Positions 4,329 to 63,294 are shown, numbered from the stretch's first letter. The stretch: DNA of 64,000 bases from Bacteroidia bacterium (GCA_050186075.1 JBFWYU010000004.1:15337-79336); one strand, 5' to 3'. The notes: a model not told the origin generated them from the sequence alone. Program-made: numbers and translations.

Positions 4329-4417
4329 CGTCATTGCGAGGCTTTTTCAGCCGAAGCAATCTCTTCAAATTGCGAGATTGCTTCACTGCTCCCGATAGCT
4401 ATCGGGACGCAATCACG
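4329..4417. repeat. REP-like nested palindromic intergenic element, copy 1 of 4
   Basis: cgtcattgcgag...gaagcaatctc...gagattgcttc...cccgatagctatcggg..cgcaatcacg. Outer IR cgtcattgcg/cgcaatcacg, inner IR gaagcaatctc/gagattgcttc. Starts 4 nt after the regulator stop codon. Confidence 0.7.
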
Positions 4418-21948: not shown

Positions 21949-21949
21949 T

Positions 21950-22640
21950 CTACCGGATTTTATCACAAAAGAACAACACAAAGTCCGAAGGACTTAAATA
22001 TGAATAACCCCGAATGCAATTCGGGAAAAAAAGCGGAGTTAACAACAACTCTAAAGGAGTTGAATAAAACAGTATGAGTACTTATACCCAAATAGTATAT
22101 CAAATAGTTTTCAGCACTAAGAACCGTGAACATACTCTTAAACCTGAAAGCAATAAAGATTTATACAAATACATTTGGGGTATATTAAAAAACAAAAAAT
22201 GTCATTTGTATCAGATAGGTGGTGTTGCTGACCATATTCATATTATAACTCATTTACATCCCTCCATAGCGCTTTCATCCTTGATTAAAGACATAAAACT
22301 GGCAAGTTCAGAGCACATAAAAAGTCATAATTTATTTCAAAACTTTTCAGGCTGGCAGGAAGGGTACGGAGCATTTACATATTCTATTAAAGATAAAGAC
22401 CGATTAATAGAATATGTAAAAAATCAGGAAGAACATCATCGAATAAAAACATTCAGAGAGGAGTATGTTGAATTGCTTAATGAGCATGGGATTGCATTCG
22501 ATGAGAAATTTCTTTTGTAATAACAATTCAACCACGTTGTGGTTGTTTTATATCTGCGTCATATAACCCCTGATTTCATCAGGGGTTATTCAAATTAAAT
22601 CCCTTCGGGATTTTTATAGAAGCTAGGCAGGATATTCTCT
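21950..22640 (+). mobile_element. Putative IS200/IS605-family element (tnpA only) with hairpin-rich ends
   Basis: Y1 transposase gene flanked upstream by hairpins (agtccgaaggact; cccgaatgcaattcggg) and downstream by three hairpins (caaccacgttgtggttg; ataacccctgatttcatcaggggttat; aaatcccttcgggattt). Exact ends not determinable from one copy. Confidence 0.4.
22074..22520 (+). CDS. tnpA: IS200/IS605-family Y1 (HUH) transposase TnpA, possibly a REP-associated tyrosine transposase (RAYT)
   Basis: 148 aa. HUH motif ADHIHIITHL; C-terminal catalytic Tyr context EYVKNQEEHH; size typical of TnpA_IS200. Confidence 0.7.
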   Translation: MSTYTQIVYQIVFSTKNREHTLKPESNKDLYKYIWGILKNKKCHLYQIGGVADHIHIITHLHPSIALSSLIKDIKLASSEHIKSHNLFQNFSGWQEGYGAFTYSIKDKDRLIEYVKNQEEHHRIKTFREEYVELLNEHGIAFDEKFLL

Positions 22641-22708
22641 AAAAGAGCACTAAAATTAATTCACATCAGAATCCCCTTATTCGTAATTTCGCACAGAATT
22701 TCCTCTCT

Positions 22709-25600: not shown

Positions 25601-25811
25601 ACTCTGGATAATGCGGTTAATAATGTCCACGGGGCTAAGATATAAAGAAAGCAAACTATTTTGCCTGCCTTATGGGTTCAAAACACAGTGTAATGTATCT
25701 TCTCTATCTGTGAATTATGTAAATCACAGGTAGTATTCTGTAACATCAACCTAAATTAATGGCCTCACCTTTGCATGTTCATTATTCAGTATTCACATAA
25801 AAAAAATAATC

Positions 25812-26606
25812 ATGAAAACTCAACCAAATAAAAAAAGTAAAATTTCTTTTATAAAGAGCATGTTCTATGTAACAGTTGCCGGAATGGTCAGCTTGCTATT
25901 GCCTGCCTGTTCTAAAGAAGATGTAAAAGATAAAGCCCACATGTCGGTGCGCATGACTGATGCTCCCGCCAATTATGATGCGGTTCTTATAGATGTGCAG
26001 AATGTAGAAATAAAAACCGATGGCGGTGATATTATGCTGAATGTTAATGCAGGTATATACAACCTGCTTGATTTTTCAAACGGGTTAGATACACTTATTG
26101 CTTCGGGAGATCTGGATGCAGGAACAGTATCGCAAATAAGACTGATACTGGGGTCAAACAACACAGTGGTTGTGGATAATGTTCCCCACCCATTGGCTAC
26201 ACCCAGTGCTGAACAATCAGGATTAAAGATACAGGTTCATAAAACGCTGGAGCCCGGTGTTTCTTATGCTATATTACTTGACTTTGATGCTAATGAATCA
26301 ATTGTTTTGCAAGGTAATGGTGAGTATAAACTGAAACCTGTTATCAGAACCGTTGATGTTTCATTAAACGGTTCTGTAAGAGGAAGCATAGCTCCGGCCG
26401 GAGTTGCAGCCGTTATAACAGTAACTGATGGTGTTAACTCTTATACTTCTGTAGCCAATGCAAACGGTGACTTTTTAGTGGCCGGTATTCCTGCGGGAAA
26501 TTATGATGTAGAAATTACTCCGGCTCTTCCATTCTTGCCGGTTACTGTATCGGGTGTAACTGTTTCGGTGGGAGGTTCAACTCAAATAGGGCTTATAACT
26601 CTGTAA
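25812..26606 (+). CDS. Lipoprotein, DUF4382-like (carboxypeptidase-regulatory-like C-terminal domain)
   Basis: Signal peptide and lipobox (LLLPACSKE). C-terminal GSVRGSIAPAG...DGVNSYTSVANANGDFLVAGIPAGNYDVEI beta-sandwich motif. Confidence 0.5.
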   Translation: MKTQPNKKSKISFIKSMFYVTVAGMVSLLLPACSKEDVKDKAHMSVRMTDAPANYDAVLIDVQNVEIKTDGGDIMLNVNAGIYNLLDFSNGLDTLIASGDLDAGTVSQIRLILGSNNTVVVDNVPHPLATPSAEQSGLKIQVHKTLEPGVSYAILLDFDANESIVLQGNGEYKLKPVIRTVDVSLNGSVRGSIAPAGVAAVITVTDGVNSYTSVANANGDFLVAGIPAGNYDVEITPALPFLPVTVSGVTVSVGGSTQIGLITL

Positions 26607-26640
26607 GTTATTTTTGAGCTATAACAGTTTATTATTTTTT

Positions 26641-26676
26641 AAATAACAATGCCCCTTAAACGGGGCATTGTTATTT
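26641..26676. terminator. Bidirectional rho-independent terminator (perfect 15-bp stem)
   Basis: aaataacaatgcccc-ttaaac-ggggcattgttattt flanked by a T-run upstream and A-run downstream; between convergent genes. Confidence 0.75.
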
Positions 26677-26725
26677 AAAAGAGTTTTAACTCATCAGCGT
26701 AACAACCTTTAGTGCTGCACTCTGC

Positions 26726-27022: not shown

Positions 27023-27094
27023 GGGGTTTATGTTTTAAGGTTTAAACAAAAATAATGCTTTTCTATCCGCTAAACGGATGACACTACTATTTCT

Positions 27095-27436: not shown

Positions 27437-27494
27437 TATTCAACAGTATGTGTGTTTTAAAACTGTTCAATATCAATTATCACAAACATTTTGC

Positions 27495-28046
27495 TCAGCG
27501 TGTGTATTTACTCTTCACGCCAATTACTTCGTCCGTTTTATAACTTACGGTGTAGGTATATAATTCCGATAAAGCAGGGTCGTTAATAAATACTTTGCTA
27601 TGCTGCTTAGACAGCTCTTGCCAGAATAAATATAACAGCTTGTACATAGCTATTTGTTCTTCACCGGGAGGTGGATAATTATTTTGGTTTACTGCACTGC
27701 TCATTTCTTCATCCGAGGTTTCGTAATCACGAAATAATGTTTGATAAATTAACGCTGCATCGGGATCTGTTTTGTACTGCTCTTTCATATAATCCCACCA
27801 TTTGTAATTATAAAAGTGGGGAGTACTTACGGTGATGAAAACACTGCCGCCTGTTTGCATTATGCTTTTCTGGCGTTTAAACTTTTCATGTAACGTTGCA
27901 GTTGCCAGGCGGTATATCATTGAAGCGGTATCATCGGGTTCAATAAGCAGCGATGCCTCTACTCCACTTTCTGCAATAAGCTTGTGCTTATCACTGATGC
28001 GTGATACACGTTCAACACTTGATAAAGGACGCAGGGAGAGTTGCAT
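27495..28046 (-). CDS. Hypothetical protein, probably co-transcribed with the upstream hydroxylase
   Basis: 183 aa; 4-nt gap to the hydroxylase stop; no recognisable domain. Confidence 0.4.
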   Translation of the reverse strand: MQLSLRPLSSVERVSRISDKHKLIAESGVEASLLIEPDDTASMIYRLATATLHEKFKRQKSIMQTGGSVFITVSTPHFYNYKWWDYMKEQYKTDPDAALIYQTLFRDYETSDEEMSSAVNQNNYPPPGEEQIAMYKLLYLFWQELSKQHSKVFINDPALSELYTYTVSYKTDEVIGVKSKYTR

Positions 28047-28689: not shown

Positions 28690-28753
28690 GCCGCTTAACC
28701 TATCTGCCTTTTAACATAATGACTAAAAAGAACATTGCGCTCAGCGGGGCAGA
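28690..28753. repeat. Intergenic repeat family 2, copy A
   Basis: gccgcttaacc...ttaacataatgactaaaaagaacattgcgctcagcggggcag; shares a 60-nt core with copy B. Confidence 0.6.
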
Positions 28754-28754
28754 T

Positions 28755-28961
28755 TTAAGACCTGCTTTTTCTTTTCAGCAACTGAACAAACTGCGTAAAC
28801 TGTCCGCTGCGATGCCATTTATTGCAATGCCGACATTGATAAATAGTTTGCCCCTTTTGATACGCTTCTTCTTTGGTTGCGTAGCTTTTTTTTGAAAGGC
28901 ACATTTTGATTTTGCTTCGCTGTTTACGTGCCTCCTTTGCAAGATGATTGTACTTATTCAT
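28755..28961 (-). CDS. Small basic protein with CxxC motif (possible zinc-ribbon), hypothetical
   Basis: 68 aa, K/R-rich, ...YQCRHCNKWHRSGQ... Confidence 0.35.
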   Translation of the reverse strand: MNKYNHLAKEARKQRSKIKMCLSKKSYATKEEAYQKGQTIYQCRHCNKWHRSGQFTQFVQLLKRKSRS

Positions 28962-29029
28962 AAGCTATTCCTTTTTAAAGAATAACGGAATAAGTGGGTT
29001 AAATAGTATGTGTGAACAAAAAAATAATC

Positions 29030-29087
29030 AGATGCCGCTTAGCCAATCCGCCATTTAACATTATGCCTAAAGAACATTGCGCTCAGC
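29030..29087. repeat. Intergenic repeat family 2, copy B
   Basis: gccgcttagccaatccgccatttaacattatgcctaaagaacattgcgctcagcgggg. Confidence 0.6.
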
Positions 29088-29672
29088 GGGGTTAAGTTTA
29101 TGGTTTTTCAGAAGAGTTATTACAGGAGGAAGTGATTCAATAATGTTATTTTTCAACTGATGTTCTAAAGGCAGATAAGTAAGAACACCATTATCAAATG
29201 AAGCTTTCTCAATAATCTTAATTGATATTATATCTTTTATCAATGCATTTACATCGTATTCTGCTGTTTTGTCAAAATAGATACATACATTAACATATTC
29301 TAACTTGTTTCTTCCTTTGTCATCATACTTTTCTAACCAAAAAATCTGAGTAAAATAAGTATCATATGTTCCCTCGTAATAAAGTTCTTCATGGATACTG
29401 AACCCATTCTCAAGGATGCTATTAAATGATTGCAGATTTTCTAACTTTTTCTTTCTTTTCCAATATTCTTCAATAAAGAAACCTAAACTCCAACCCAACA
29501 AAGCAAAACCAAAACCAAATGCAAATCCCATCCAGAGAGATGTTTCCCATGCTCTGATTTTATTCTGTAACCCACTTATAAAAAAGAGAGTTCCAAAGAC
29601 AAAACCTGTAATAATTGCATTCTTCAGATAACGTTTGTAAGCATCTTTTCTGATTATTGAAACAGGTATCAT
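29067..29672 (-). CDS. Hypothetical membrane protein (2-3 TM, AT-rich gene)
   Basis: 201 aa; hydrophobic N-terminal half, soluble C-terminal half; no family recognised. Confidence 0.4.
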   Translation of the reverse strand: MIPVSIIRKDAYKRYLKNAIITGFVFGTLFFISGLQNKIRAWETSLWMGFAFGFGFALLGWSLGFFIEEYWKRKKKLENLQSFNSILENGFSIHEELYYEGTYDTYFTQIFWLEKYDDKGRNKLEYVNVCIYFDKTAEYDVNALIKDIISIKIIEKASFDNGVLTYLPLEHQLKNNIIESLPPVITLLKNHKLNPAERNVL

Positions 29673-29763
29673 CGTTGTCCGATTTTTAACTCTTAAATTG
29701 TACAGTATGACAAAAATAATTTAAAAGCATAATTATAAATTCTGCAATGTTCCAAGCGGCATT

Positions 29764-29821
29764 ATCCGCCTCAGGCGGACCGCTTAGCGCAAACGCATTG
29801 AACATTCAGCTGAGCGGGGCA
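29764..29821. repeat. Intergenic repeat family 2, copy C (hybrid with the GC hairpin of family 1)
   Basis: tccgcctcaggcggac-cgcttagcgcaaacgcattgaacattcagctgagcggggcag. Confidence 0.55.
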
Positions 29822-29825
29822 GTTA

Positions 29826-30935
29826 CTATTTGCTTTTCAAAATCCAGTTCAGTCGTAAATTAAATGTCTTGAAATTTTTCCAGTCAGGCGAATTGTTGGT
29901 GTATTTGGGTTGAGAAAGTGAGGCAAAGTCAAAATTAATGTTCATTGGTATTTTAGTCAACTTGTAAAGAGGAACCTGAAGTCCGAGCCCGTATGTGAAA
30001 GGGGTAATTTTGTCGTAGTTGATGGATGGGTAACCAAAGTCATATTGTTTTTCAAAATAGTAACCAGCGCGAAGTGATAATATCTCAAAAAGCATTAGTT
30101 CACCACCTACCCGAATAGCGGTCTCATATTCTGAGTTTAAAAGGTTTTGGTATTCACCTTGAACTAAAAAAACAAGAGTTGTTAAAGTGTCTATAAGCAC
30201 GTGCTTGGCAAGGTTAAACTGATAATTTGCGCCAAAGCGAGCAACAACGGGCAAATCGTTTTTAATCGTTGTTCCGTTATATTCAAGTGTGATTTTGGAA
30301 TTATTAAGATTTGAAATGCTTGCCCCGACATTTAGTGAATGTCCGGTGCTTTGCTTTTGTAAGAATTTGATTTTTTTAATTATCCCAAAGTCAACGTAAA
30401 GTGAGTTGGCGGCTTTGTCAAGTCCCGGCTGCCAAACTAAATTGGTTAAGTTAAGTCCGATAAGAAGATTTTTTATTGGTTCAGAAGATACAGTCAACGT
30501 ATTTCTTTCGGAATAAGGTTTTTTGTTTACGTTTTGGATTTCTGTCTTACCAAAATCAAAGCGAAATTTAGAAACAGCAATCTGTATAGATGGTCCAGGT
30601 CCTGTTGGTAAAGGTGTCCACCCGCTCTTTTTAAACATATTGCGTAACGATAAGTTTAATCCTGCACTGAAATACCAATAATAACCTTCTGTCAAATAGA
30701 ATGGCGGTGGTGTATAAGAGCCATTTGTTTCTACACCTTTAATTGTTGCAGCACCCGCTGGATTAAAATAAATAGTAGTCAAGTCACCATCAATAGAAGT
30801 ATAACTTCTACCCATTGCCTCTGCACGTGCATTTTGTTGTCTGCCAAAAAAATTCTCTTTTAGGAAATAGTATTTATACTGTCCGAAAGAAGTAAACGGA
30901 AGTAGTAAAAGAAAAATGATTATCAGTCGTGTCAT
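29826..30935 (-). CDS. Outer-membrane beta-barrel protein, PorV/PorQ-like (T9SS-associated family), tentative
   Basis: Signal peptide. N-terminal ARAEAMGRSYTSIDGDLTTIYFNPAGAA motif reminiscent of the PorV/PorQ family; beta-strand periodicity; C-terminal aromatic. Confidence 0.4.
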   Translation of the reverse strand: MTRLIIIFLLLLPFTSFGQYKYYFLKENFFGRQQNARAEAMGRSYTSIDGDLTTIYFNPAGAATIKGVETNGSYTPPPFYLTEGYYWYFSAGLNLSLRNMFKKSGWTPLPTGPGPSIQIAVSKFRFDFGKTEIQNVNKKPYSERNTLTVSSEPIKNLLIGLNLTNLVWQPGLDKAANSLYVDFGIIKKIKFLQKQSTGHSLNVGASISNLNNSKITLEYNGTTIKNDLPVVARFGANYQFNLAKHVLIDTLTTLVFLVQGEYQNLLNSEYETAIRVGGELMLFEILSLRAGYYFEKQYDFGYPSINYDKITPFTYGLGLQVPLYKLTKIPMNINFDFASLSQPKYTNNSPDWKNFKTFNLRLNWILKSK

Positions 30936-31169
30936 TGGTCGTTTGCTTTAATTGCCCATAACTTATCTATACCCGAAACCTTATTTCGCATATCCACACC
31001 CCCTTGGTTAGACTTGCGAAAATTTGGTGTTATTGCATAGCATTCTGTCAACAACATTATTAAAATTATTTTATAAATCAAATACCAACAGCAATTTGTT
31101 GCTGAGGAAATACGGCCTTATACCGTAGTTGTTAAGGATGCACAGAAAAAGTAAAAGTATGTACACAGA

Positions 31170-31421
31170 ATTATAATGTTTGCATATATACTTATAAACT
31201 ATGCCCGGAGATTTATAAAGTTTGCAGAGATACTTTTTAACTATGTATAGTCGTTTATAAAGTTTGCCTGCATACTTTTAAACTATGCATAAAGAATATA
31301 TAAGTATGCACGCTTAGTTGTAAACTATGCATACAGAATTATAAAGTTTGTGTGCAGAATTATAAACTATGTATGCAGAATTATAACGTTTGCACAAATA
31401 CTTATACTTTTTGCAAGCATA
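31170..31421. repeat. Array of 12 strictly phased 21-bp AT-rich direct repeats (iteron-like), alternating two subtypes
   Basis: Units start at 31170, 31191, 31212 ... 31401 (exact 21-nt spacing). Type A ttataaagtttgcNNNNNatac, type B ttataaactatgNNNNNagaa (42-bp super-unit x6). Confidence 0.8.
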
Positions 31422-31694
31422 CTTAACTAAAATGGCGGAAAAAGAAAAAGCTTTCTTCACAAACCTGTAAGCGTTGCGAAGAAAGCTTTAAACTCCGGCT
31501 GCCGGACTGCCGGCTAAAAATTATTAATTGATGATGAGTGAATAAGGTTGACTCCAATTGCCTGTTCCGTCTTTAGGGGTGGTTACCCTATGGCGAAAAT
31601 ACTGACGCGTTACCGGCTGCAAGCCTGCAACAGTTGTAGTTGCCTTTATAGTTGTTGGCAAAGGTTGCCAGTTAATACCATCACCTGATGTAGC

Positions 31695-32144
31695 CTACTC
31701 ATGAAACGAACGCATGGGAGCGCCCGGAGCAAAAAGGTCAACTATACCTGAAGTAATTGTGTTTTTTGCATGAAACACTACTTTCTGCCTTATTGCAGTC
31801 ATTTTTATGCGCATGCCACCTTTTTCGGCTATGTCAGCAGCCTGTGAAGGGTTAGCATTAACAGCAGTTTGCACTACCACTTTCAGCATATTAATATCCG
31901 AAACTACTAATCCCAGCGGTATATTTCTTGCAGCAGCAGTGCCTGTTCCGGCTATAACGGCTGCCTCGGCATTTTCCAGTGCCTGAATATTGGCATCTAT
32001 TGCTGTAAGCACTGTAGCCGGAATTACAAAAAGTGCCGGATACTGTTGAATAGCTGCAAGCAATGCATCAGCATCCAGAATTAGTTGTGGAACTTTGGTA
32101 GCAATCTTGTAAACGACTACCGGATGTTTTGGAAAGTTTGTCAT
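31695..32144 (-). CDS. Hypothetical protein; ORF ends at a TAG that is followed in-frame by 57 further sense codons (31522..31694)
   Basis: 149 aa ORF. In-frame downstream extension ATSGDGINWQPLPTTIKATTTVAGLQPVTRQYFRHRVTTPKDGTGNWSQPYSLIIN. Confidence 0.4.
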   Translation of the reverse strand: MTNFPKHPVVVYKIATKVPQLILDADALLAAIQQYPALFVIPATVLTAIDANIQALENAEAAVIAGTGTAAARNIPLGLVVSDINMLKVVVQTAVNANPSQAADIAEKGGMRIKMTAIRQKVVFHAKNTITSGIVDLFAPGAPMRSFHE

Positions 32145-32587: not shown

Positions 32588-32975
32588 GGTACATTGTTAT
32601 TGGTTAACTCTTAAACCGCACAGCCGCACGCAGACAAAGGCCCTATAGCCTGCACACAAAAGCATGTTGATTAAAAAAGTAAACCTATAACAATGAAGCC
32701 GGGGGTTAAAAACAGAGTAGAAATGTTACGCTATGCCGGAAGTGGTTTTGGATTAAGAGCAGTAAATTTATAAAAATTATTATTTACAATGCAAGCGGGC
32801 ATCCGTTAACAAGATACTGCTGATAAGGCCTGTTTTATATTTTTATGCTCAACAAAGCTTTGGCAATGGCCTTAGCCTTGGTTGCTGAAAAGATCTTACA
32901 CCCGGTCAACGCCTGAGGAGGAAGAGGGAAGCAAAGGGGTGTCACAACGTGACGGGGTGAGTTAAAAAGAAAACC

Positions 32976-32999
32976 CCGTATCGCCTGAGGCGATACGGA
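32976..32999. terminator. Rho-independent terminator downstream of the fasciclin gene (bidirectional stem-loop)
   Basis: ccgtatcgcc-tgag-ggcgatacgg 10-bp stem with T-rich tracts on both sides. Confidence 0.6.
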
Positions 33000-33030
33000 G
33001 TTTTCTTCACTCTAAAACCCACGTTGCCGC

Positions 33031-34304: not shown

Positions 34305-34745
34305 ATGATGTTCTCTAAAAGTTGTGAGTATGCTATTAAAGCAGTGCTGCACTTATGTATTCACACCAAAGACGGGAACAAACTCGGCATACACGAAATT
34401 GCGGAAGCCATAGAATCGCCCGAACCATTTACGGCAAAAATTCTGCAAACGCTGGTAAAGCATAAAATCATCAATTCTTCAAAAGGTCCCGGTGGCGGTT
34501 TTTTTATTGATAAAAAAGCAAAGCCCATTGTAGTAATGGATATTATTGAAATCATTGACGGCAAATCAGCTTTTGAACGTTGCGGCCTTGGATTAAAACA
34601 CTGCGATGCCAGTCACCCCTGCCCTATTCATAATGAGTTTGTCAATTACTCACAGAAACTGAAAAACCTGTTGGAGAAAAAAACCATTCAGGAGTTTTCG
34701 GCAAGCATTGCGGCAGGAAAATCGTTTATCTCTAATTTAAGCTAA
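34305..34745 (+). CDS. Rrf2-family transcriptional regulator (IscR/NsrR-like, three-Cys cluster)
   Basis: N-terminal wHTH (CEYAIKAVLHLC...LGIHEIAEAIESPEPFTAKILQTLVKHKII); C-terminal Cys residues (C..C.....C) as in Fe-S Rrf2 regulators. Sits directly upstream of the nos locus. Confidence 0.8.
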   Translation: MMFSKSCEYAIKAVLHLCIHTKDGNKLGIHEIAEAIESPEPFTAKILQTLVKHKIINSSKGPGGGFFIDKKAKPIVVMDIIEIIDGKSAFERCGLGLKHCDASHPCPIHNEFVNYSQKLKNLLEKKTIQEFSASIAAGKSFISNLS

Positions 34746-34747
34746 AC

Positions 34748-34839
34748 CGTCATTGCGATCTGCCAGAGGCGGAGAAGCAATCTCCCGTTTAAATACTTTA
34801 CCTCATTGTAAGATTGCTCAGCTATCACCCGCAATCACG
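34748..34839. repeat. REP-like nested palindromic intergenic element, copy 2 of 4
   Basis: cgtcattgcgatctgccagaggcggagaagcaatctc...taagattgctcagctatcacccgcaatcacg; begins 3 nt after the Rrf2 stop. Confidence 0.65.
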
Positions 34840-34965
34840 TTATTATAACTCAATAAAAGATAAAAAGGTCTTTTTATTGACATTAATCATAATTTTGACT
34901 GACCGAACTCATTATGTATAACCCAACACGGGGCTAATTTTGTCCCGTAATCAAAAACAATCCTT

Positions 34966-35460
34966 ATGAAAAACATAACATTTAAACTAATTACAGGAAG
35001 TATTCTGGCAACAGCAATTGCAGTAATGGCAAGTTGCTCAGGAGGTGAAACAACCAATACCTCAGGCACAGCACCTGAAAGTATGATAAACAAACCTGCA
35101 GCCGATAACGGTGAAGGAATTGGAAAATTCAGCGGTATAACATTGGCAGCTTTTGATGCCACACTGGCTGCATCAGGCAAAAGCGTATTTGAAACCAAAT
35201 GCTCTGCCTGCCACAAAATAACCGACCAGAAAATTGTAGGTCCCGGACTTAAAGGCGTTACTCAACGCAGAAAACCAGCCTGGATTTTAAACATGATCAC
35301 TAATCCCGAGGAGATGACTAAAAAAGATCCTCAGGCAATGAAGTTGCTGGAAGAACACCTTACCCAAATGACCTTTCAGAATGTAACCGATGATGAGGCA
35401 AAAGCTATTCTCGAATACATGCGTGAAATAGACGGTGAAGGAACAACCGCACAACAATAA
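34966..35460 (+). CDS. Mono-haem c-type cytochrome lipoprotein (nos-associated)
   Basis: Lipobox MASCSGG; haem-binding CSACH; Met-rich C-terminal half. A TAATTTTG -7-type promoter motif lies at 34935..34942. Confidence 0.8.
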   Translation: MKNITFKLITGSILATAIAVMASCSGGETTNTSGTAPESMINKPAADNGEGIGKFSGITLAAFDATLAASGKSVFETKCSACHKITDQKIVGPGLKGVTQRRKPAWILNMITNPEEMTKKDPQAMKLLEEHLTQMTFQNVTDDEAKAILEYMREIDGEGTTAQQ

Positions 35461-35496
35461 TCACAATCAATTAAAACCAATCAAAACCAGTTAACA

Positions 35497-37479
35497 ATGA
35501 AAACACTAACATTAAAATCAATGGGGATATTTGCCGCCTGCATAGCAGCGGCAGGTATTATCAGCAGTTGTAAACCCAAAAAGGTTGACTCTGCTCTTTC
35601 AGGCGATGCAGCAGCAAAAGTTTATGTTGCACCGGGCAAATACGATGAAGTTTACTTATTCACTTCCGGTGGCTTTAGCGGACAGGTAGGCGTTTACGGT
35701 ATTCCTTCAGGTCGCATGCTGAAACAGGTTCCTGTATTTTCTATGGATGCCGAAACAGGATGGGGATACAGCGAAGAAACAAAACCTATGCTGATGACTT
35801 CACATGGTTTTGTTCCCTGGGATGATAGTCACCACCCGCAACTTTCACGTATGGAAGGTCAGGCAGATGGTCGTTGGCTGTTTATTAATGCCAACAACAC
35901 TCCGCGTATTGCACGTTTGGATTTAGGAGTATTTAAAACACGCGAAATTATTGAGTTGCCTAATACAGGAGGAAACCATGCTTCGCCTTTCACTACTCAG
36001 AATACCGAGTACGTTGTTGGTGCTTCACGCTTTTCTGTTCCGTATGATAAACAAGGTGATGAGGCTATTGCCGAATACAAAGACAAATTTAAAGGCACCA
36101 TTTCTTTTGTAAAAGTTGACAAAGAAACAGGTCGCATGAATTTGAATTTTCAGTTATTGGTTCCCGGAGTTGACTATGATCTGGCTCGCGCAGGTAAAGC
36201 AGTTTCTGACGGATGGGTTTTCTTCAGTTGCTACAACAGCGAAAAAGCACACTCATTGCTGGAAGTAAATGCTTCGCAACGCGACAAAGATTTTATTATG
36301 GCTGTGAACTGGAAAAAAGCTGAAGAATATTTAGCAGCAGGCAAAGGACAAAAATGGTCTGCAAACTATGCACACAATGTATATGACGAAGCAACACATA
36401 CAGCTACCACTACCATGGAAAAAGAAGTTACGGTGTTAGATGTTAAAGATTTGCCGGGCGTATGTTATTTTATTCCATGTCCTAAATCACCACACGGTTG
36501 CGATGTTGACCCTACAGGCGAATACATCTGTGCATCGGGTAAACTGGCTGCTGTAATTCCTGTTTACTCCTTCAGCAAAATGATAAAAGCTATTGAAGCA
36601 AAAGATTTTGAAGGCGATTTTGACGGAGTTCCTGTAATAAAATACGAAGCTGCATTGGATGGTGAAGTAGAACGTCCGGGACTTGGACCTCTGCACACCG
36701 AGTTTGATGCAAACGGCAATGCTTACACTTCATTCTTCGTATCATCAGAGATTGTAAAATGGAATGTTAAAACAAAACAAATCATTGACCGCGTTCCTAC
36801 TTACTACTCTATCGGTCACCTGTGTGTGCCAATGGGCGATAACATTACTCCTTACGGAAAATATGTAATTGCACTGAACAAAATCACCAAAGACCGCTAC
36901 CTGCCTACAGGACCTGAGTTAACTCAATCTGCTCAGTTGTATGACATCAGCGGAGAAAAAATGCAATTGCTGCTTGACTTCCCTACTATCGGTGAGCCAC
37001 ACTATGCACAGGCATGTCCTGCAGAAATTGTGCGTAAACACGAAGTTAAGTTCTATAAATTAGAAAATAACAACCATGCATATGCAGTAAAAAATGAGAA
37101 AGATGCAAAAGTTGTTCGCACCGGAAACGATGTACATATTTATGCAACCTCTATCCGTTCACACTTTACTCCCGATAATATTGAAGGAGTAAAAGTTGGC
37201 GACAATGTGTATTTCCACCTTACCAACCTTGAACAGGATTGGGATGTTCCGCACGGGTTTGCAATCAAAGGAGCTAACAATGCAGAGTTATTAATTCTGC
37301 CGGGCGAAACAGCAACACTTAAATGGGTTCCGGACAGAGTGGGTGTGTTCCCTATGTATTGCACCGACTTCTGCTCTGCTTTGCACCAGGAAATGCAAGG
37401 ATACATTCGTGTATCACCTGCGGGAAGCAATCCTGCATTGAAATACTCAACCGGAGAAGAAGCAGTTTCTGCAAAATAG
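35497..37479 (+). CDS. nosZ: Nitrous-oxide reductase, clade II (Sec/lipoprotein-type signal peptide)
   Basis: 660 aa. N-terminal Sec-type signal with lipobox-like SSC. Seven-bladed propeller region with conserved His ligands. C-terminal cupredoxin CuA motif H..CTDFCSALHQEM. Confidence 0.95.
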   Translation: MKTLTLKSMGIFAACIAAAGIISSCKPKKVDSALSGDAAAKVYVAPGKYDEVYLFTSGGFSGQVGVYGIPSGRMLKQVPVFSMDAETGWGYSEETKPMLMTSHGFVPWDDSHHPQLSRMEGQADGRWLFINANNTPRIARLDLGVFKTREIIELPNTGGNHASPFTTQNTEYVVGASRFSVPYDKQGDEAIAEYKDKFKGTISFVKVDKETGRMNLNFQLLVPGVDYDLARAGKAVSDGWVFFSCYNSEKAHSLLEVNASQRDKDFIMAVNWKKAEEYLAAGKGQKWSANYAHNVYDEATHTATTTMEKEVTVLDVKDLPGVCYFIPCPKSPHGCDVDPTGEYICASGKLAAVIPVYSFSKMIKAIEAKDFEGDFDGVPVIKYEAALDGEVERPGLGPLHTEFDANGNAYTSFFVSSEIVKWNVKTKQIIDRVPTYYSIGHLCVPMGDNITPYGKYVIALNKITKDRYLPTGPELTQSAQLYDISGEKMQLLLDFPTIGEPHYAQACPAEIVRKHEVKFYKLENNNHAYAVKNEKDAKVVRTGNDVHIYATSIRSHFTPDNIEGVKVGDNVYFHLTNLEQDWDVPHGFAIKGANNAELLILPGETATLKWVPDRVGVFPMYCTDFCSALHQEMQGYIRVSPAGSNPALKYSTGEEAVSAK

Positions 37480-37493
37480 GTTGAGCAATTAAA

Positions 37494-37527
37494 GGGGGAG
37501 GTATGGGTTTGCCTCCCCCTTTTTTTA
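37494..37527 (+). terminator. Rho-independent terminator / attenuator between nosZ and nosB-like gene
   Basis: gggggagg-tatgggtttg-cctccccc followed by tttttttt. Confidence 0.75.
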
Positions 37528-37548
37528 ACACTAAAAAATTTAAAAGTC

Positions 37549-38124
37549 ATGAAAACCATCAAACCATTTCTGAGGGTAGTGTTGTTGCTGTGTGGTATTG
37601 CCATGTTTGTTTCGCTCAAATTTCCTGCGTGGAAAATTCTGCTCGAAGCACCGCAATATCCTGAAGGATTAAAGATGGAAATATGGTCTGACCACATTGG
37701 TGGTGACATTGACAAAATAAACGGATTGAATCATTATATAGGAATGGCATTAATTAAGGAAGAAAATTTTCCTGAATTTAAAATTATGCCTTACCTGATT
37801 ATTGTAATGGGTGTTTTGGGTTTACTGGTTGCGGCAACCGGAAAACGTTGGATGCTGTGGATATTTGCAGGTTATCAATTGCTTTGCGGAATATGGGGTG
37901 TTTATGATTTCTGGAAATGGGAATATGAATACGGACACAATCTTGATCCGCATGCAGCCATAAAAATTGAAGGCATGGCTTATCAGCCACCACTCTTCGG
38001 ATGGAAACAATTACTGAACTTTCTGGCAGGCTCATTTCCCGATATCGGGGGCTGGCTTATCATTGGTGCTTCAGCAATTGTTATCTTAGTATTGGCTTAC
38101 GAGCAATACTTCAGAAAAAACTAA
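37549..38124 (+). CDS. NosB-like integral membrane protein (clade II nos clusters)
   Basis: 191 aa, 4-5 TM; position immediately after nosZ as in clade II loci. Confidence 0.55.
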   Translation: MKTIKPFLRVVLLLCGIAMFVSLKFPAWKILLEAPQYPEGLKMEIWSDHIGGDIDKINGLNHYIGMALIKEENFPEFKIMPYLIIVMGVLGLLVAATGKRWMLWIFAGYQLLCGIWGVYDFWKWEYEYGHNLDPHAAIKIEGMAYQPPLFGWKQLLNFLAGSFPDIGGWLIIGASAIVILVLAYEQYFRKN

Positions 38125-38143
38125 TTACTTTACATTTATAATT

Positions 38144-38584
38144 ATGAGAAATATGAATAAAATAACTGCGCTCATTTTTAGTGTATGCATATTTATTGTT
38201 TCGTGTTCAACCGAACCGCAACCAATAAACTACGGAAAAGATATGTGTGAACATTGCGGTATGACCATTATGGATAAAAAATTTGGTGCCGAAATGGTAA
38301 ACTCAAAAGGCAAAGCCATAAAATTTGATTCGGGCGAATGCATGGTAAGCTACATCAACAGCGATAATAAATTTGAAGCTGAACAATACCTTGTTGTAAA
38401 TTATAATTCGGAAGGTGAGTTGCTAAAGGCATCGGAAGCATTTTACCTGCATGGAGGAACAGTTGTAAGTCCTATGGGTGGCAATCTGGCTGCTTTTAAA
38501 ACAAAAGAAGATGCTGAAAAATCCAATCAGGAATTTGCTGCTGATCTGCTTACCTGGGACGATGTAAAAAAGATTAACTTTTGA
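38144..38584 (+). CDS. nosL: Copper chaperone lipoprotein NosL
   Basis: Lipobox IVSCST; MCEHCGM copper-binding motif; ATGA overlap with nosD. Confidence 0.85.
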   Translation: MRNMNKITALIFSVCIFIVSCSTEPQPINYGKDMCEHCGMTIMDKKFGAEMVNSKGKAIKFDSGECMVSYINSDNKFEAEQYLVVNYNSEGELLKASEAFYLHGGTVVSPMGGNLAAFKTKEDAEKSNQEFAADLLTWDDVKKINF

Positions 38585-39819
38585 AAACATTTGCTTTATC
38601 ATGCTTCTCTATTGTTGTTTTTTGCTTCTTTTCACAGGCAAAAACAATTGTGGTTTGTCCCCAATGCAAGGTAACACAGCTTACCACAGCACTTGAATTA
38701 GCTGTTGACCATGACACCATTCTTGTAAAAAAAGGAAGCTACATTTCGGTAAACACCGAAATAAAAAAACAGGTTGTTATTATTGGCGAGGATTACCCTG
38801 TAATTGACGGACAGGAAAAAGATGAAGTGCTGGTAGTTTTAAGCGACAATGTTGTTATTTCAGGTTTATGGGTAAAAAACTCTAAGCGCGGAAGTATGAA
38901 AGATTACGCAGGAATAAGAGTAGTTGATTCGCGTAACGTGAAAATAATAAATTGCAAACTGGAAAATACTTTTTTCGGAATATACCTGAGCAAATCACAA
39001 AATTGCCTGATTACAAACAACCACAGCAAAGGTGCCAACTATGGTAAAAGCGATACAGGTAATGGCATTCACTTATGGAAATGCGACAGTGTAAAAATTG
39101 AAAACAACCACATGGAAGGTCATCGTGACGGAATGTATTTTGAGTTTGCACACTTTTGCCTGATTGAAAAAAATTTATGCGAAAAAAATTACCGTTATGG
39201 TTTGCACTTCATGTTTTCGGATGATGATGTTTACCGCAACAATACGTTTCAGAATAACGGAACAGGTGTAGCTGTTATGTACACCAAAAATGTGGAAATG
39301 TATGATAACACCTTTCAGAACAATTGGGGTGATGCAGCTTACGGCTTGCTTTTGAAAGACATCAGCAACAGCATTATTGAAGGAAATACATTTACCAACA
39401 ACACAGTTGGTGTAACCATGGAAGGCTCGAACATGATAACGTTTTCAAAAAACAATTTCACCTCCAACGGCTATGCACTAAAGGTGATGGCCAATTGCAT
39501 ACGCGATACGTTTATGTATAATAACTTTACCGCAAACACCTTTGATGCTGCCACTAATGGTGAGCTGCGCGAAAACAGTTTTATGTACAATTACTGGGAT
39601 AAATACGAGGGCTATGATTTAAACCGCGACAAAATCGGTGATATTCCTTTTCGCCCGGTAAGCTTGTATTCTATGATAATTGAACAGATGCCTTATGCTG
39701 TAATGTTGCTGCGCAGTTTTACTGTTGAGATTTTAAATCGTGCCGAAAAAAGCATTCCGGGAATTGTTCCCGAAACATTTCAGGATTATGCACCCATGAT
39801 GAAACCAAACATTCTATGA
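38581..39819 (+). CDS. nosD: Periplasmic copper-binding protein NosD (parallel beta-helix repeats)
   Basis: Signal peptide; repeated N-x-F/I beta-helix rungs (NNTFQNNGTGVAV, DNTFQNNWGD, GNTFTNNTVGV ...). Confidence 0.85.
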   Translation: MKTFALSCFSIVVFCFFSQAKTIVVCPQCKVTQLTTALELAVDHDTILVKKGSYISVNTEIKKQVVIIGEDYPVIDGQEKDEVLVVLSDNVVISGLWVKNSKRGSMKDYAGIRVVDSRNVKIINCKLENTFFGIYLSKSQNCLITNNHSKGANYGKSDTGNGIHLWKCDSVKIENNHMEGHRDGMYFEFAHFCLIEKNLCEKNYRYGLHFMFSDDDVYRNNTFQNNGTGVAVMYTKNVEMYDNTFQNNWGDAAYGLLLKDISNSIIEGNTFTNNTVGVTMEGSNMITFSKNNFTSNGYALKVMANCIRDTFMYNNFTANTFDAATNGELRENSFMYNYWDKYEGYDLNRDKIGDIPFRPVSLYSMIIEQMPYAVMLLRSFTVEILNRAEKSIPGIVPETFQDYAPMMKPNIL

Positions 39820-40529
39820 TACGCACCGAGCAATTAGAAAAGAGTTTTGGCAAGTTGCATGTACTGAAAGGATTGGACGTTGAGTTTACTGCCGGACAGG
39901 TAGTGAGTATTATCGGACACAACGGTTCCGGAAAAACAACGCTTATCAAATGTATTCTTGGAATGGTGGTTGCCGACAAAGGCAAAATATTTTTTGACGG
40001 GAAAAGCATTTCCGGTGATTTCCGCTATCGCGAACAGATTGGCTATATGCCGCAGATAGGACATTATCCCGAGAACATGAAAATCGGTCAGATTTTTAAA
40101 ATGATGAAAGACCTTCGAAAAAATGCTACTTCGTTAGATGAAAGCCTGATGGAAGAATATAAACTTTCTGAACTTTTTGAAAAACCCATGCATGCACTTT
40201 CGGGCGGAACAACTCAAAAGGTAAGTGCATCACTGGCATTTCTGTTTAACCCTAAAGTGTTGATTTTAGATGAACCTACCGCAGGACTTGATCCATTGGC
40301 TGCAGAGATTTTGAAAGCAAAAATTATAGAAGCAAAGAGTAAAGGAAAGCTGGTTATCATTACTTCACACATTATGAGCGAGGTAGAAGAAATGGCAGAC
40401 ACAGTAATGTATTTATATGAAGGGAAAGTAAATTTTCACAACTCAGTTGCTGAATTGAAAAAACAAACCGGTGAAGAAAAAGTGGGAAAGGCAATTGCTA
40501 AAATCATGAAACAATCTGCCCATGTTTAA
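39816..40529 (+). CDS. nosF: ABC transporter ATP-binding protein NosF
   Basis: Walker A GHNGSGKTT, signature LSGGTTQK, Walker B ILILDEP. Confidence 0.85.
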   Translation: MIRTEQLEKSFGKLHVLKGLDVEFTAGQVVSIIGHNGSGKTTLIKCILGMVVADKGKIFFDGKSISGDFRYREQIGYMPQIGHYPENMKIGQIFKMMKDLRKNATSLDESLMEEYKLSELFEKPMHALSGGTTQKVSASLAFLFNPKVLILDEPTAGLDPLAAEILKAKIIEAKSKGKLVIITSHIMSEVEEMADTVMYLYEGKVNFHNSVAELKKQTGEEKVGKAIAKIMKQSAHV

Positions 40530-41289
40530 GATAGCTAAATATGTAGTGTACGATATTTTGCGCAGTAAGGTGCTGATTGCTTATTCCTTGTTCTTACTGC
40601 TGGTTTCATTCAGCCTATTTAGCATGGAAGAAAACAGCTCAAAAAGTTTAATCAGCCTGATGAGTGTGGTAATGATTATTGTTCCGTTAGTGAGTATTAT
40701 TTTTTCTACAACTTATTTCTATAATGCCTACCAGTTTATTGAATTACTGGTGGCACAGCCCATCAGCCGAAGCTCTATTCTGATGGGCGAGTTTTTGGGT
40801 GTTTCTGTTTCATTGCTTACCGCCTTACTTTTAGGCGTTGGTATTCCTGTTTTGATTTACGCTCCGGATGCAACCGGATTTGTATTGATGATTTCAGGGT
40901 TTGCACTCACGCTTTCATTTATCTCTTTGGCGTTTTTCTCATCTGTTGCCATGCGTGATAAAGCCAAAGGAATAGGAATGTCGCTGATGCTTTGGTTCTA
41001 TTTTTCGGTAATTTATGACGGACTTGTATTAGGTATTCTCTTCTCATTCAATGAATATCCGCTGGAGAAGGCAGTAATTGCTTTGGCCTCTTTTAACCCT
41101 ATTGACCTGGGCAGAATAATTATTCTGATGAAAATGGATATTTCAGCTCTGATGGGATTGACAGGTGCTGTTTACAAACAGTTTTTCGGAAGCAGTTTTG
41201 GCATAATTTACAGCCTTTCCATCATGCTCATATGGATTACAGCTCCACTGCTGATTGCCCTGCGAATCTTCAAAAGAAAGAACTTATAG
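40522..41289 (+). CDS. nosY: ABC-2 type permease NosY
   Basis: 255 aa, 6 TM; overlaps nosF by 8 nt. Confidence 0.75.
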   Translation: MFKIAKYVVYDILRSKVLIAYSLFLLLVSFSLFSMEENSSKSLISLMSVVMIIVPLVSIIFSTTYFYNAYQFIELLVAQPISRSSILMGEFLGVSVSLLTALLLGVGIPVLIYAPDATGFVLMISGFALTLSFISLAFFSSVAMRDKAKGIGMSLMLWFYFSVIYDGLVLGILFSFNEYPLEKAVIALASFNPIDLGRIIILMKMDISALMGLTGAVYKQFFGSSFGIIYSLSIMLIWITAPLLIALRIFKRKNL

Positions 41290-41648: not shown

Positions 41649-41722
41649 GGGGGATTAGCTCAGCTGGCTAGAGCGTTTGCATGGCATGCAAGAGGTCATC
41701 GGTTCGACTCCGATATTCTCCA
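41649..41722 (+). tRNA. tRNA-Ala (anticodon GGC)
   Basis: GGGGGAT-TA-GCTC-AGCTGGCTA-GAGC-G-TTTGC-ATGGCAT-GCAAG-AGGTC-ATCGG-TTCGACT-CCGAT-ATTCTCC-A. Cloverleaf with G3:U70 Ala identity pair, TTCGA T-loop, anticodon GGC; CCA not encoded. Confidence 0.9.
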
Positions 41723-54999: not shown

Positions 55000-55080
55000 C
55001 GTGATTGCGAGTCCGCCTCAGGCGGGCGAAGCAATCTCATAAATAATAAAGAGATTGCTTCGCTATCGCTCGCAATGACG
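55000..55080. repeat. REP-like nested palindromic intergenic element, copy 3 of 4
   Basis: cgtgattgcgagtccgcctcaggcgggcgaagcaatctcataaataataaagagattgcttcgctatcgctcgcaatgacg; preceded by a (cactaag)3 short tandem repeat. Confidence 0.7.
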
Positions 55081-63219: not shown

Positions 63220-63294
63220 CGTCATTGCGAGTCCGCCTGAGGCGGACGAAGCAATCTCACAATTAAAGATTGCTTCACTGCGTTCGCAATGACG
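63220..63294. repeat. REP-like nested palindromic element, copy 4 of 4 (overlaps the 3' end of a CDS)
   Basis: cgtcattgcgagtccgcctgaggcggacgaagcaatctcacaattaaagattgcttcactgcgttcgcaatgacg; encodes the last 7 codons and stop of the M20-like gene. Confidence 0.7.

Follow-up and report, generated by a model that had tools for sequence, protein, structure and literature searches.

Mosaic intergenic repeats of the BIME, NIME and BOX kind form a known class of bacterial sequences (PMC3733652; PMC1797815), and NIMEs have been proposed as recombination substrates (PMC1797815). We analyzed a 64-kb stretch of DNA from the MAG of an uncultured Bacteroidia bacterium, hereafter the window, which contains a family of repeats of this kind that we refer to as family 2. 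All coordinates are those of the window, and family-2 units are read on the minus (gene-sense) strand. The units are noncoding, are assembled from interchangeable modules, occur within and between related genomes and are intergenic, and their hairpins are maintained, as in the BIME/NIME/BOX kind. Family 2 is a new example of this known class, not a new kind of system, and no new mechanism is demonstrated. Our best explanation, for which we consider the chances about even, is that family 2 is a lineage-specific, modular, hairpin-forming REP/BIME/NIME-like mosaic intergenic repeat that acts as spacer and recombination joint of small gene modules, with probable terminator and promoter signals.

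In NIMEs, RS units are flanked by dRS3 inverted repeats. Like these elements, and like the "minimal mobile elements", family 2 consists of noncoding modular units that lie singly or in arrays between genes, and it is similarly tied to loci where gene content varies between close relatives. However, there is no sequence relation to NIMEs, and family 2 lacks the 20-bp dRS3 bracket (ATTCCC..GGGAAT). Also unlike NIMEs, family-2 units always share the direction of the gene that follows them, and usually a single unit makes up the whole spacer. A further contrast is that the family-2 host is not, to our knowledge, known to be naturally transformable.

REP and BIME elements of enterobacteria and pseudomonads, including GTAG- and CGTC-tagged REPs, are short hairpin-forming intergenic repeats that are able to cluster and are thought to affect termination and mRNA stability. 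Family 2 resembles them in form, and a more direct link comes from a second repeat in the window, family 1 (CGTCATTGCGAG...GAAGCAAT). Family 1 carries a CGTC tag and, judged by its sequence, looks like a CGTC-tagged REP; it shares an inner hairpin with one family-2 copy (copy 3). Unlike REPs and BIMEs, family 2 has no GTAG or CGTC tag and no associated RAYT, is longer, has multiple hairpins and an apparently low copy number, and shows an orientation bias toward the downstream gene.

BOX elements of Streptococcus pneumoniae (boxA-boxB-boxC) are intergenic and modular, with modules that are present, absent or multiplied, and have strong predicted structure. They are dispersed in about 100 copies, and we know of no case in which they form the regular spacers of orphan-gene arrays. 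Family 2 shares the modular A/B/C architecture, the strong predicted secondary structure and the intergenic position, but is unrelated in sequence and occurs in a different host phylum.

Copies in the window and anatomy of the unit

The first-pass annotation of the window placed three copies between minus-strand genes, and all three are present there: copy 1 at 28691-28749, copy 2 at 29035-29091 and copy 3 at 29727-29819, all on the minus strand, with a degenerate fourth at 27483-27503. Searches of the 64 kb for CCCCGCTSAGC (≤1 mismatch) and for GYTAAGCGG each found the same three sites, copies 1-3, and nowhere else. A profile of all family members, run on the window, gave one extra match, the weak degenerate A box of the fourth copy (E 0.81); no further copies were found in the 64-kb window. 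All window copies, including the degenerate fourth, fall within 2.4 kb, and copies 1-3 fall within 1.1 kb. This apparently low, clustered copy number, with nothing more in the other ~60 kb of the window, counts against our best explanation. Classical REPs are usually more abundant.

A unit comprises, in order, an A box (CCCCGCTSAGCnnAATGTTC), a variable stretch (V), a B box (GCTNAGCGG), a GC tip, a C box (CCGCTYGGAACA), an AT-rich hairpin D and a T-run or -7-like box, and measures ~95-145 nt when full. The parts are interchangeable: V is either short (~10 nt) or long (~30 nt), the hairpin tip varies among full-length units, and C and D may be present or absent. We compared ~20 units, from the window and from contigs L004, L035, L037, L050, L053, L059, L060, L064/65 and L071, in which modules A, V, B, tip, C and D are differently combined. 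All are intergenic or overlap just the last codons of a gene.

In the window, only copy 3 is full length. It has both conserved ends, the A box CCCCGCTCAGCtgAATGTTC (29800-29819), which begins 6 nt past the stop of the PorV/PorQ-like ORF369, and the B box GCTAAGCGG (29780-29788), separated by a short variable stretch (29789-29799). The GC hairpin tip TCCGCCTGAGGCGGA follows at 29765-29779, and then the C box CCGCTTGGAACATT (29746-29759); its CCGCTT is paired with the B-box AAGCGG, and its GAACATT is able to pair with the A-box AATGTTC. Next are the AT-rich hairpin D (GCAGAATT-TAT-AATTATGC, 29727-29745), which shows covariation, and a T-rich tail (29711-29726). The tail includes an TATTTTTG box 38 nt before the start of ORF201 (29672), from its sequence a probable promoter. 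The place first given for copy 3 was thus correct but its length was not, as the unit continues to 29727 with the C box and D hairpin.

Copies 1 and 2 are 5' partial units that end just past the B box. They are 87% identical over ~60 nt and share an exact 23-mer (28727-28749 = 29069-29091; family D11). In copy 2, the A box (29072-29091) and B box (29035-29043) are separated by a long variable stretch (29044-29071); ORF201 ends 8 codons into the unit, which is immediately followed by the conserved promoter and leader of ORF68. Copy 1 consists of an A box (28730-28749), a long variable stretch (28700-28729) and the B box GTTAAGCGG (28691-28699), and lies 5 nt past the ORF68 stop and 91 nt before the start of a fatty-acid-hydroxylase-like gene. 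The overlap with the upstream gene's stop reported for every copy therefore holds for copy 2 only; copies 1 and 3 start 5-6 nt past the stop. The degenerate fourth A box, ACACGCTGAGCAAAATGTTTG (27483-27503, minus strand), is directly past the stop of ORF183. In addition, a B-like hairpin, ATCCGTTTAGCGGAT, occurs on the minus strand at 27065-27079, upstream of the ORF98 promoter (TATTTTTG at 27047-27054). In the close relative L060, the corresponding joint has an A-like box. We also searched the window for an orphan C-D half and found none, so the idea of a unit split by a gene inserted between B and C was rejected.

The GC hairpin of copy 3 had been described as shared with family 1, and the match is real: TCCGCCTSAGGCGGA at 29765-29779 is identical to 63232-63246 in one family-1 repeat (63224-63255) and differs only in the last base from 55012-55026 in another (55004-55035). 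It is not a one-off borrowing, however, as the whole subfamily of copy-3-type units has a GC hairpin in this place. Units of L071, for example, carry the GC tip CCTCGCCTGAGGCGAGG at the position of the copy-3 tip, from which it differs by compensatory changes.

The B and C boxes pair with each other as AAGCGG/CCGCTT or GAGCGG/CCGCTC. Two alignments, A2 and A3, show compensatory changes among copies in the B-C, tip and D helices, which are 88-100% paired. In A2, both members of 7 of the 15 pairs have changed, with 92% of cells paired, a result matched by 0 of 500 shuffles, and A3 again gave 0 of 500; with 5-6 related sequences per set, these values are supportive but are not proof. The compensatory changes point to selection for the hairpins, which mere patches of homology would not need. 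A hairpin-recognizing protein or an RNA function may thus be involved, a point against our best explanation. Departures from Watson-Crick pairing in the main helices are G-U and A-C in equal number (4 versus 4), so structure at the RNA level is indistinguishable from structure at the DNA level.

Several other identities were rejected. A small ribozyme or known structured RNA was dismissed for lack of an Rfam match: at the gathering score, Rfam 15 matched the whole window only at a tRNA (41649-41722) and nowhere at the units. With the threshold relaxed to E ≤ 10 for the window and E ≤ 1 for L050, L053, L059 and L061, still nothing plausible overlapped a unit. The core reads N-I-x-L-S-G on the opposite strand, but the frames are short (10 to ~60 codons) and differ in each copy, and a coding explanation was rejected on this ground. 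Finally, ATTATGTTAAA in the long variable stretch of copies 1 and 2 resembles the XerD arm of Escherichia coli dif. This dif/Xer resemblance was attributed to chance, because the spacing does not fit and the rest of the family has GCAAAG in that place.

Full-length units end in a T-run and a TAnnTTTG-like box, located, as judged from sequence, 16-40 nt before the next start codon. TAnnTTTG is the -7 consensus of Bacteroidetes, and it is matched by the TATTTTTG boxes at 29711-29718 and 27047-27054, which lie 24-38 nt before start codons. We infer that the T-rich 3' end, with its TAnnTTTG-like box, may supply or abut the promoter of the next gene. Likewise, on the transcript, the GC hairpins together with the D hairpin and T-run could end or stabilize the upstream mRNA. 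The suggestion that the repeats are a shared promoter is thus at best partly plausible, and then just for the 3' end of full-length units; copies 1 and 2 lie upstream of gene-specific promoter and leader sequence.

These signals bear on a different explanation, in which the main role of the unit is that of a cis-acting RNA or regulatory element of co-regulated small genes and its position at variable joints is a by-product. Candidate forms are a 5' leader with structure, operators clustered for a single regulator, or an insulating block of terminator plus promoter. Units are always upstream of and co-oriented with a gene, even in divergent spacers, their helices are conserved with covariation, and the T-run and -7-like box at the 3' end would suit this role. 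Furthermore, one-sided changes in the alternative A-B pairing, in which no compensatory change is seen, are mostly to G-U on the sense strand. On the other hand, the downstream genes are unrelated and mostly orphans, half of the structure is missing from copies 1 and 2, there is no Rfam match even at E ≤ 10, and the main helices show as many A-C as G-U departures. In front of ORF68, the unit is upstream of the conserved promoter-like region and hence would lie outside the ORF68 transcript. The leader of ORF68 is kept in all of its contexts, and the unit in front varies. We consider a primarily cis-acting element unlikely, though it is the strongest of the alternatives.

Family-2 units mark gene-content differences between close relatives

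Scans of representative genomes and metagenomes returned mostly chance matches, plus true relatives. The chance matches in the representative genomes, a collection that does not contain the window's own genome, fell mostly in one unrelated, highly conserved coding sequence, presumably the EF-G gene fusA. Homologous units were identified in one Bacteroidetes MAG (L004 and L037), in another Bacteroidia MAG (L035), where the unit adjoins family-1-type repeats, and in low-GC metagenome contigs (L050 and L053), with further units in L059-L074. With related units and swapped modules at other loci and in other genomes, the initial proposal of a mosaic small-repeat family is well founded. Searches of viral contigs, a phage collection and a plasmid collection gave no match to the unit, and a phage or plasmid origin was rejected on this basis.

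The arrangement is most regular in L071, an array of six co-oriented orphan genes that have no Pfam domains (a single zinc-finger match is below threshold). Three of its spacers (145-172 nt) each consist of one full-length unit of ~145 nt that is 84% identical to copy 3, and the other three contain partial or degenerate units. In divergent spacers (L060 at 791 and 3250/3404; L064 at 1319), the orientation of the unit follows the downstream gene. Within and between genomes, therefore, family-2 units are repeated, co-oriented with the downstream gene, and keep their hairpins by compensatory changes. Orientation relative to the downstream gene and coincidence with gene-content breakpoints are points that go beyond the first reading of the sequence.

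The genes next to the units appear to be exchangeable modules. ORF68 (28755-28961, minus strand), which encodes a small zinc-ribbon-like protein, is one such module and lies between copy 2 and copy 1. Another, flanked by copies 3 and 2, is ORF201 (29067-29672, minus strand), encoding an orphan membrane-like protein whose sole match is a 100%-identical protein from a Bacteroidia MAG; exact look-ups of ORF201 and this database twin (P0001) yielded no contig on record. Relatives of ORF68 that are ≥90% identical at the protein level occur on many contigs. We found ORF68 in five gene contexts, the window and four others, with a family-2 unit of varying subtype directly in front each time and no relation between contexts in the sequence before the A box. 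At the other end of the module, homology stops at the start of the next A box, just past the stop codon, in four of the five. The point at which homology begins differs: relative to the window, it is at the A box for L064/L074, at the B box for L060, L071 and L072, and part-way into the variable stretch for L059. A second module, encoding proteins of 188/195 aa, is common to L071 and L065 from the C box onward, and the A-to-B halves in front of it differ.

Comparison of the window with L060, whose core proteins are 92-96% identical, places family-2 units at gene-content differences between close relatives. Synteny breaks at 29043 (the copy 2 B box), at 28754 (the start of copy 1) and at 27064 (just past the B-like hairpin), and the genes between ORF68 and ORF98 are wholly different. 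The breakpoints are scattered within the unit (start of A, B box, apex of the B-C hairpin). The commonest of them is this apex, around which truncations, insertions and swaps are clustered. In the more distant relatives L055-L058 the orthologous position has no family-2 unit, though it is hypervariable there too, so the repeat is not required for variability in those genomes, which counts against our best explanation.

Assembly breaks also coincide with units. L062 and L070 are 100%-identical assemblies of the window's genome, and the L070 contig starts at window position 29713, just past the copy 3 D hairpin, in the T-rich tail. Contigs L071, L072 and L073 likewise start within or beside a unit. 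Contig starts at units are the outcome that a repeat or strain-variable joint would produce, and hint at more copies.

Under our best explanation, the spacers would join gene modules that are small, mostly orphan and transcribed independently, within hypervariable stretches of the genomes of related uncultured Bacteroidia. Co-oriented, near-identical patches of 60-110 nt could serve as joints for homologous recombination or gene conversion, by which gene modules would be inserted, deleted or swapped. The scatter of breakpoints over the A box, B box and B-C apex fits homologous recombination or gene conversion at such patches. Counting against the joint model, a patch of 20-60 nt is short for efficient RecA recombination.

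Mobile-element and cassette explanations

An alternative is that the units are nonautonomous REP/REPIN- or MITE-like elements copied by an HUH/Y1 transposase, for instance by the product of the IS200-like gene 6.5 kb away. That gene (22074-22520) has a clear Y1_Tnp domain (Pfam 3e-22; NCBIfam IS200/IS605 66 bits versus a cut-off of 55), and hairpin-built units are the kind of substrate on which Y1/HUH enzymes act. The tandem clusters of units in L060 (3250-3450) resemble BIMEs. However, the Y1 gene has flanking inverted repeats of its own (46 nt, with hairpins) that bear no relation to family 2, and the whole 727-bp element is missing from L060, so it is an ordinary insertion sequence. The REP-associated transposase (RAYT) model scores the gene at 29 bits, below the cut-off of 80, and together these observations led us to reject a RAYT identity for it. 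Family-2 units themselves differ from a REP mobilized by a RAYT in that they are 60-110 nt long with several helices and have no GTAG/CGTC tag (a REP is a 20-40 bp palindrome). The two ends of the unit (A box versus D hairpin/T-run) are not inverted repeats of each other, and so a MITE was rejected. No terminal inverted repeats were detected, no target duplications were seen at aligned joints, and no empty sites were found. Strict co-orientation with the downstream gene would also be unexpected from random insertion. Overall, copying by a transposase appears improbable.

Slightly less probable still is an integron-like cassette system, in which the units are recombination sites analogous to attC sites or VCRs and the recombinase is encoded elsewhere. 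Like attC sites (e.g., the Vibrio cholerae repeats), family-2 units form imperfect hairpins (~60-140 nt) whose base helices are conserved and whose tip varies. They too lie between single-gene units that share one orientation and are mostly orphans, and toxin-antitoxin pairs occur nearby. The same conserved hairpin divides whole arrays of such genes, the ORF68 module has A boxes at both bounds in four contexts, and the B-C apex is where truncations, insertions and swaps concentrate. In some A boxes the sequence is GTTGAGC or GTTGGGC, compatible with GTTRRRY, and TA-like pairs adjoin units in L004 and L035.

Against this, family 2 lacks the complementary RYYYAAC...GTTRRRY pair of attC sites. 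A regex search on both strands for core pairs 45-145 nt apart and at least 6/7 complementary found none in the 26-33 kb array, and across the whole window it hit only two unrelated places. In most copies the B box has GCT (GCTAAGC or GCTGAGC), and the GTT-like motif is at the 5' end of the unit, not the 3' end. Pfam detected no tyrosine recombinase (Phage_integrase) in the 40 window proteins that we scanned, a set covering the complete 26.7-33.6 kb gene run, although one may be encoded beyond the 64 kb inspected. Unlike attC sites, the units show no single fixed crossover position (homology starts at the A box, B box, variable stretch or C box), and the genes seem to be served by promoters of their own. 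In Bacteroidetes, moreover, integrons are very rare (PMC9024848). Membership in the integron attC class was rejected given the missing core sites, the lack of an integrase among the scanned proteins and the scattered breakpoints.

A variant of this idea, an undescribed Bacteroidia-specific cassette system without IntI or attC, strikes us as similarly improbable. In such a system, single orphan genes with their own promoters would be excised and inserted by a recombinase, or by an enzyme that recognizes hairpins in single-stranded DNA, acting at a structured ~100-nt site and encoded in another part of the genome. At the core of this site would be the B-tip-C hairpin, its apex being the commonest breakpoint. 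Selection for the hairpins, together with the clustering of rearrangements at the hairpin apex, leaves room for an active hairpin-recognizing enzyme.

The remaining explanation, that a single gene boundary was duplicated in tandem and left the three copies as a scar, draws on their location within 1.1 kb and is refuted, because the flanking genes, as first suspected, are not paralogous (BLASTP, all E > 0.05) and homologous units occur at unrelated loci and in other genomes.

Implications for hypervariable regions

In other respects family 2 is an ordinary class of feature. If our best explanation is correct, it would show how a poorly known group of environmental Bacteroidia organizes a hypervariable region. 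Small orphan genes would be separate transcription units joined by the same structured spacer, and relatives would differ exactly at the joints. This organization would also explain why assemblies break at unit positions. The spacer would provide a sequence handle with which to find variable arrays in metagenomes, and the family would be a test case for mosaic repeats driving module exchange outside Neisseria and the enterobacteria.

Surroundings of the variable region

The gene directly upstream of the third copy of the modular intergenic repeat (family 2) is ORF369 (29826-30935), which encodes an outer-membrane protein of the PorV/PorQ family (type IX secretion). In more distant relatives (contigs L055-L058), a co-oriented run of accessory genes also lies downstream of the ORF369 homologue. 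These genes encode toxin-antitoxin pairs, T9SS cargo, and transposases, and the run lacks family-2 units. On its right, the variable region is flanked by a nitrous-oxide reductase region (34305-41289), which comprises genes for an Rrf2-type regulator and a cytochrome c as well as nosZ and accessory genes located downstream. A tRNA gene (41649-41722) comes next. Gene names in the nitrous-oxide reductase region were assigned by reading translations and from Pfam labels on L062, a 100%-identical assembly of the source genome.

A plus-strand DUF4382 gene (25812-26606) is encoded in the window, whereas the close relative L060 has an unrelated DUF1761 gene in its place (window 25650-26725 versus L060 5508-6136). 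Inside the window side of this replacement is a palindromic, terminator-like hairpin with a stem of ~20 bp (26636-26681).

ORF149 (31695-32144, minus strand) and ORF369 are separated by a 760-nt spacer that contains ~15 tandem units of 21 bp each (31133-31445). Two unit types, AAACTATGCA and AAAGTTTGCA, alternate, giving a super-period of 42 bp. The units could be iterons, or the array could bind a regulator or act as a promoter region.

A Y1 transposase insertion

An IS200/IS605-type Y1 transposase gene (22074-22520) lies within a 727-bp block (21949-22674) that is a discrete insertion, as the entire block is missing from L060. Imperfect inverted repeats of 46 nt (21980-22025 and 22568-22613) occur on either side of the gene. 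Each consists of two small hairpins, and the differences between hairpins are compensatory changes. The right-hand hairpin is preceded by GCGTCAT, which is similar to the CGTC tag of the REP-like family-1 repeats.

Other small repeats and the GC hairpin

Family-1 repeats occur in the window at 4333-4360, 55004-55035, and 63224-63255, and also in contig L035 (4600-4670), where an inverted pair is located immediately upstream of a family-2 unit. The repeats consist of CGTCATTGCGAG, then a variable GC hairpin, then CGAAGCAATC. They are similar to the superfamily of CGTC-tagged REPs that Di Nocera et al. described (PMC3733652), whose members likewise have a variable inner hairpin. A textbook intrinsic terminator 3' of the fasciclin gene (32974-33000, minus strand) has the stem-loop GTATCGCCTCAGGCGATAC, whose core, GCCTCAGGC, is identical to the core of the GC hairpin common to families 1 and 2.

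A third small repeat, CTAAGCGAAGCGTTCTCnTTGATACCTT, is common to the unrelated contigs L004 (3398-3430) and L050 (1318-1350); no convincing copy was found in the window. In L004 it is inserted in a family-2 unit, at the apex of the hairpin formed by pairing of the B and C boxes.

Family-2 units at contig ends

Four contigs from independent short-read assemblies, L070 (whose start corresponds to window position 29713), L071, L072, and L073, begin inside or adjoining family-2 units. These positions suggest that assemblies are interrupted by the units themselves or by variation between strains at these sites.
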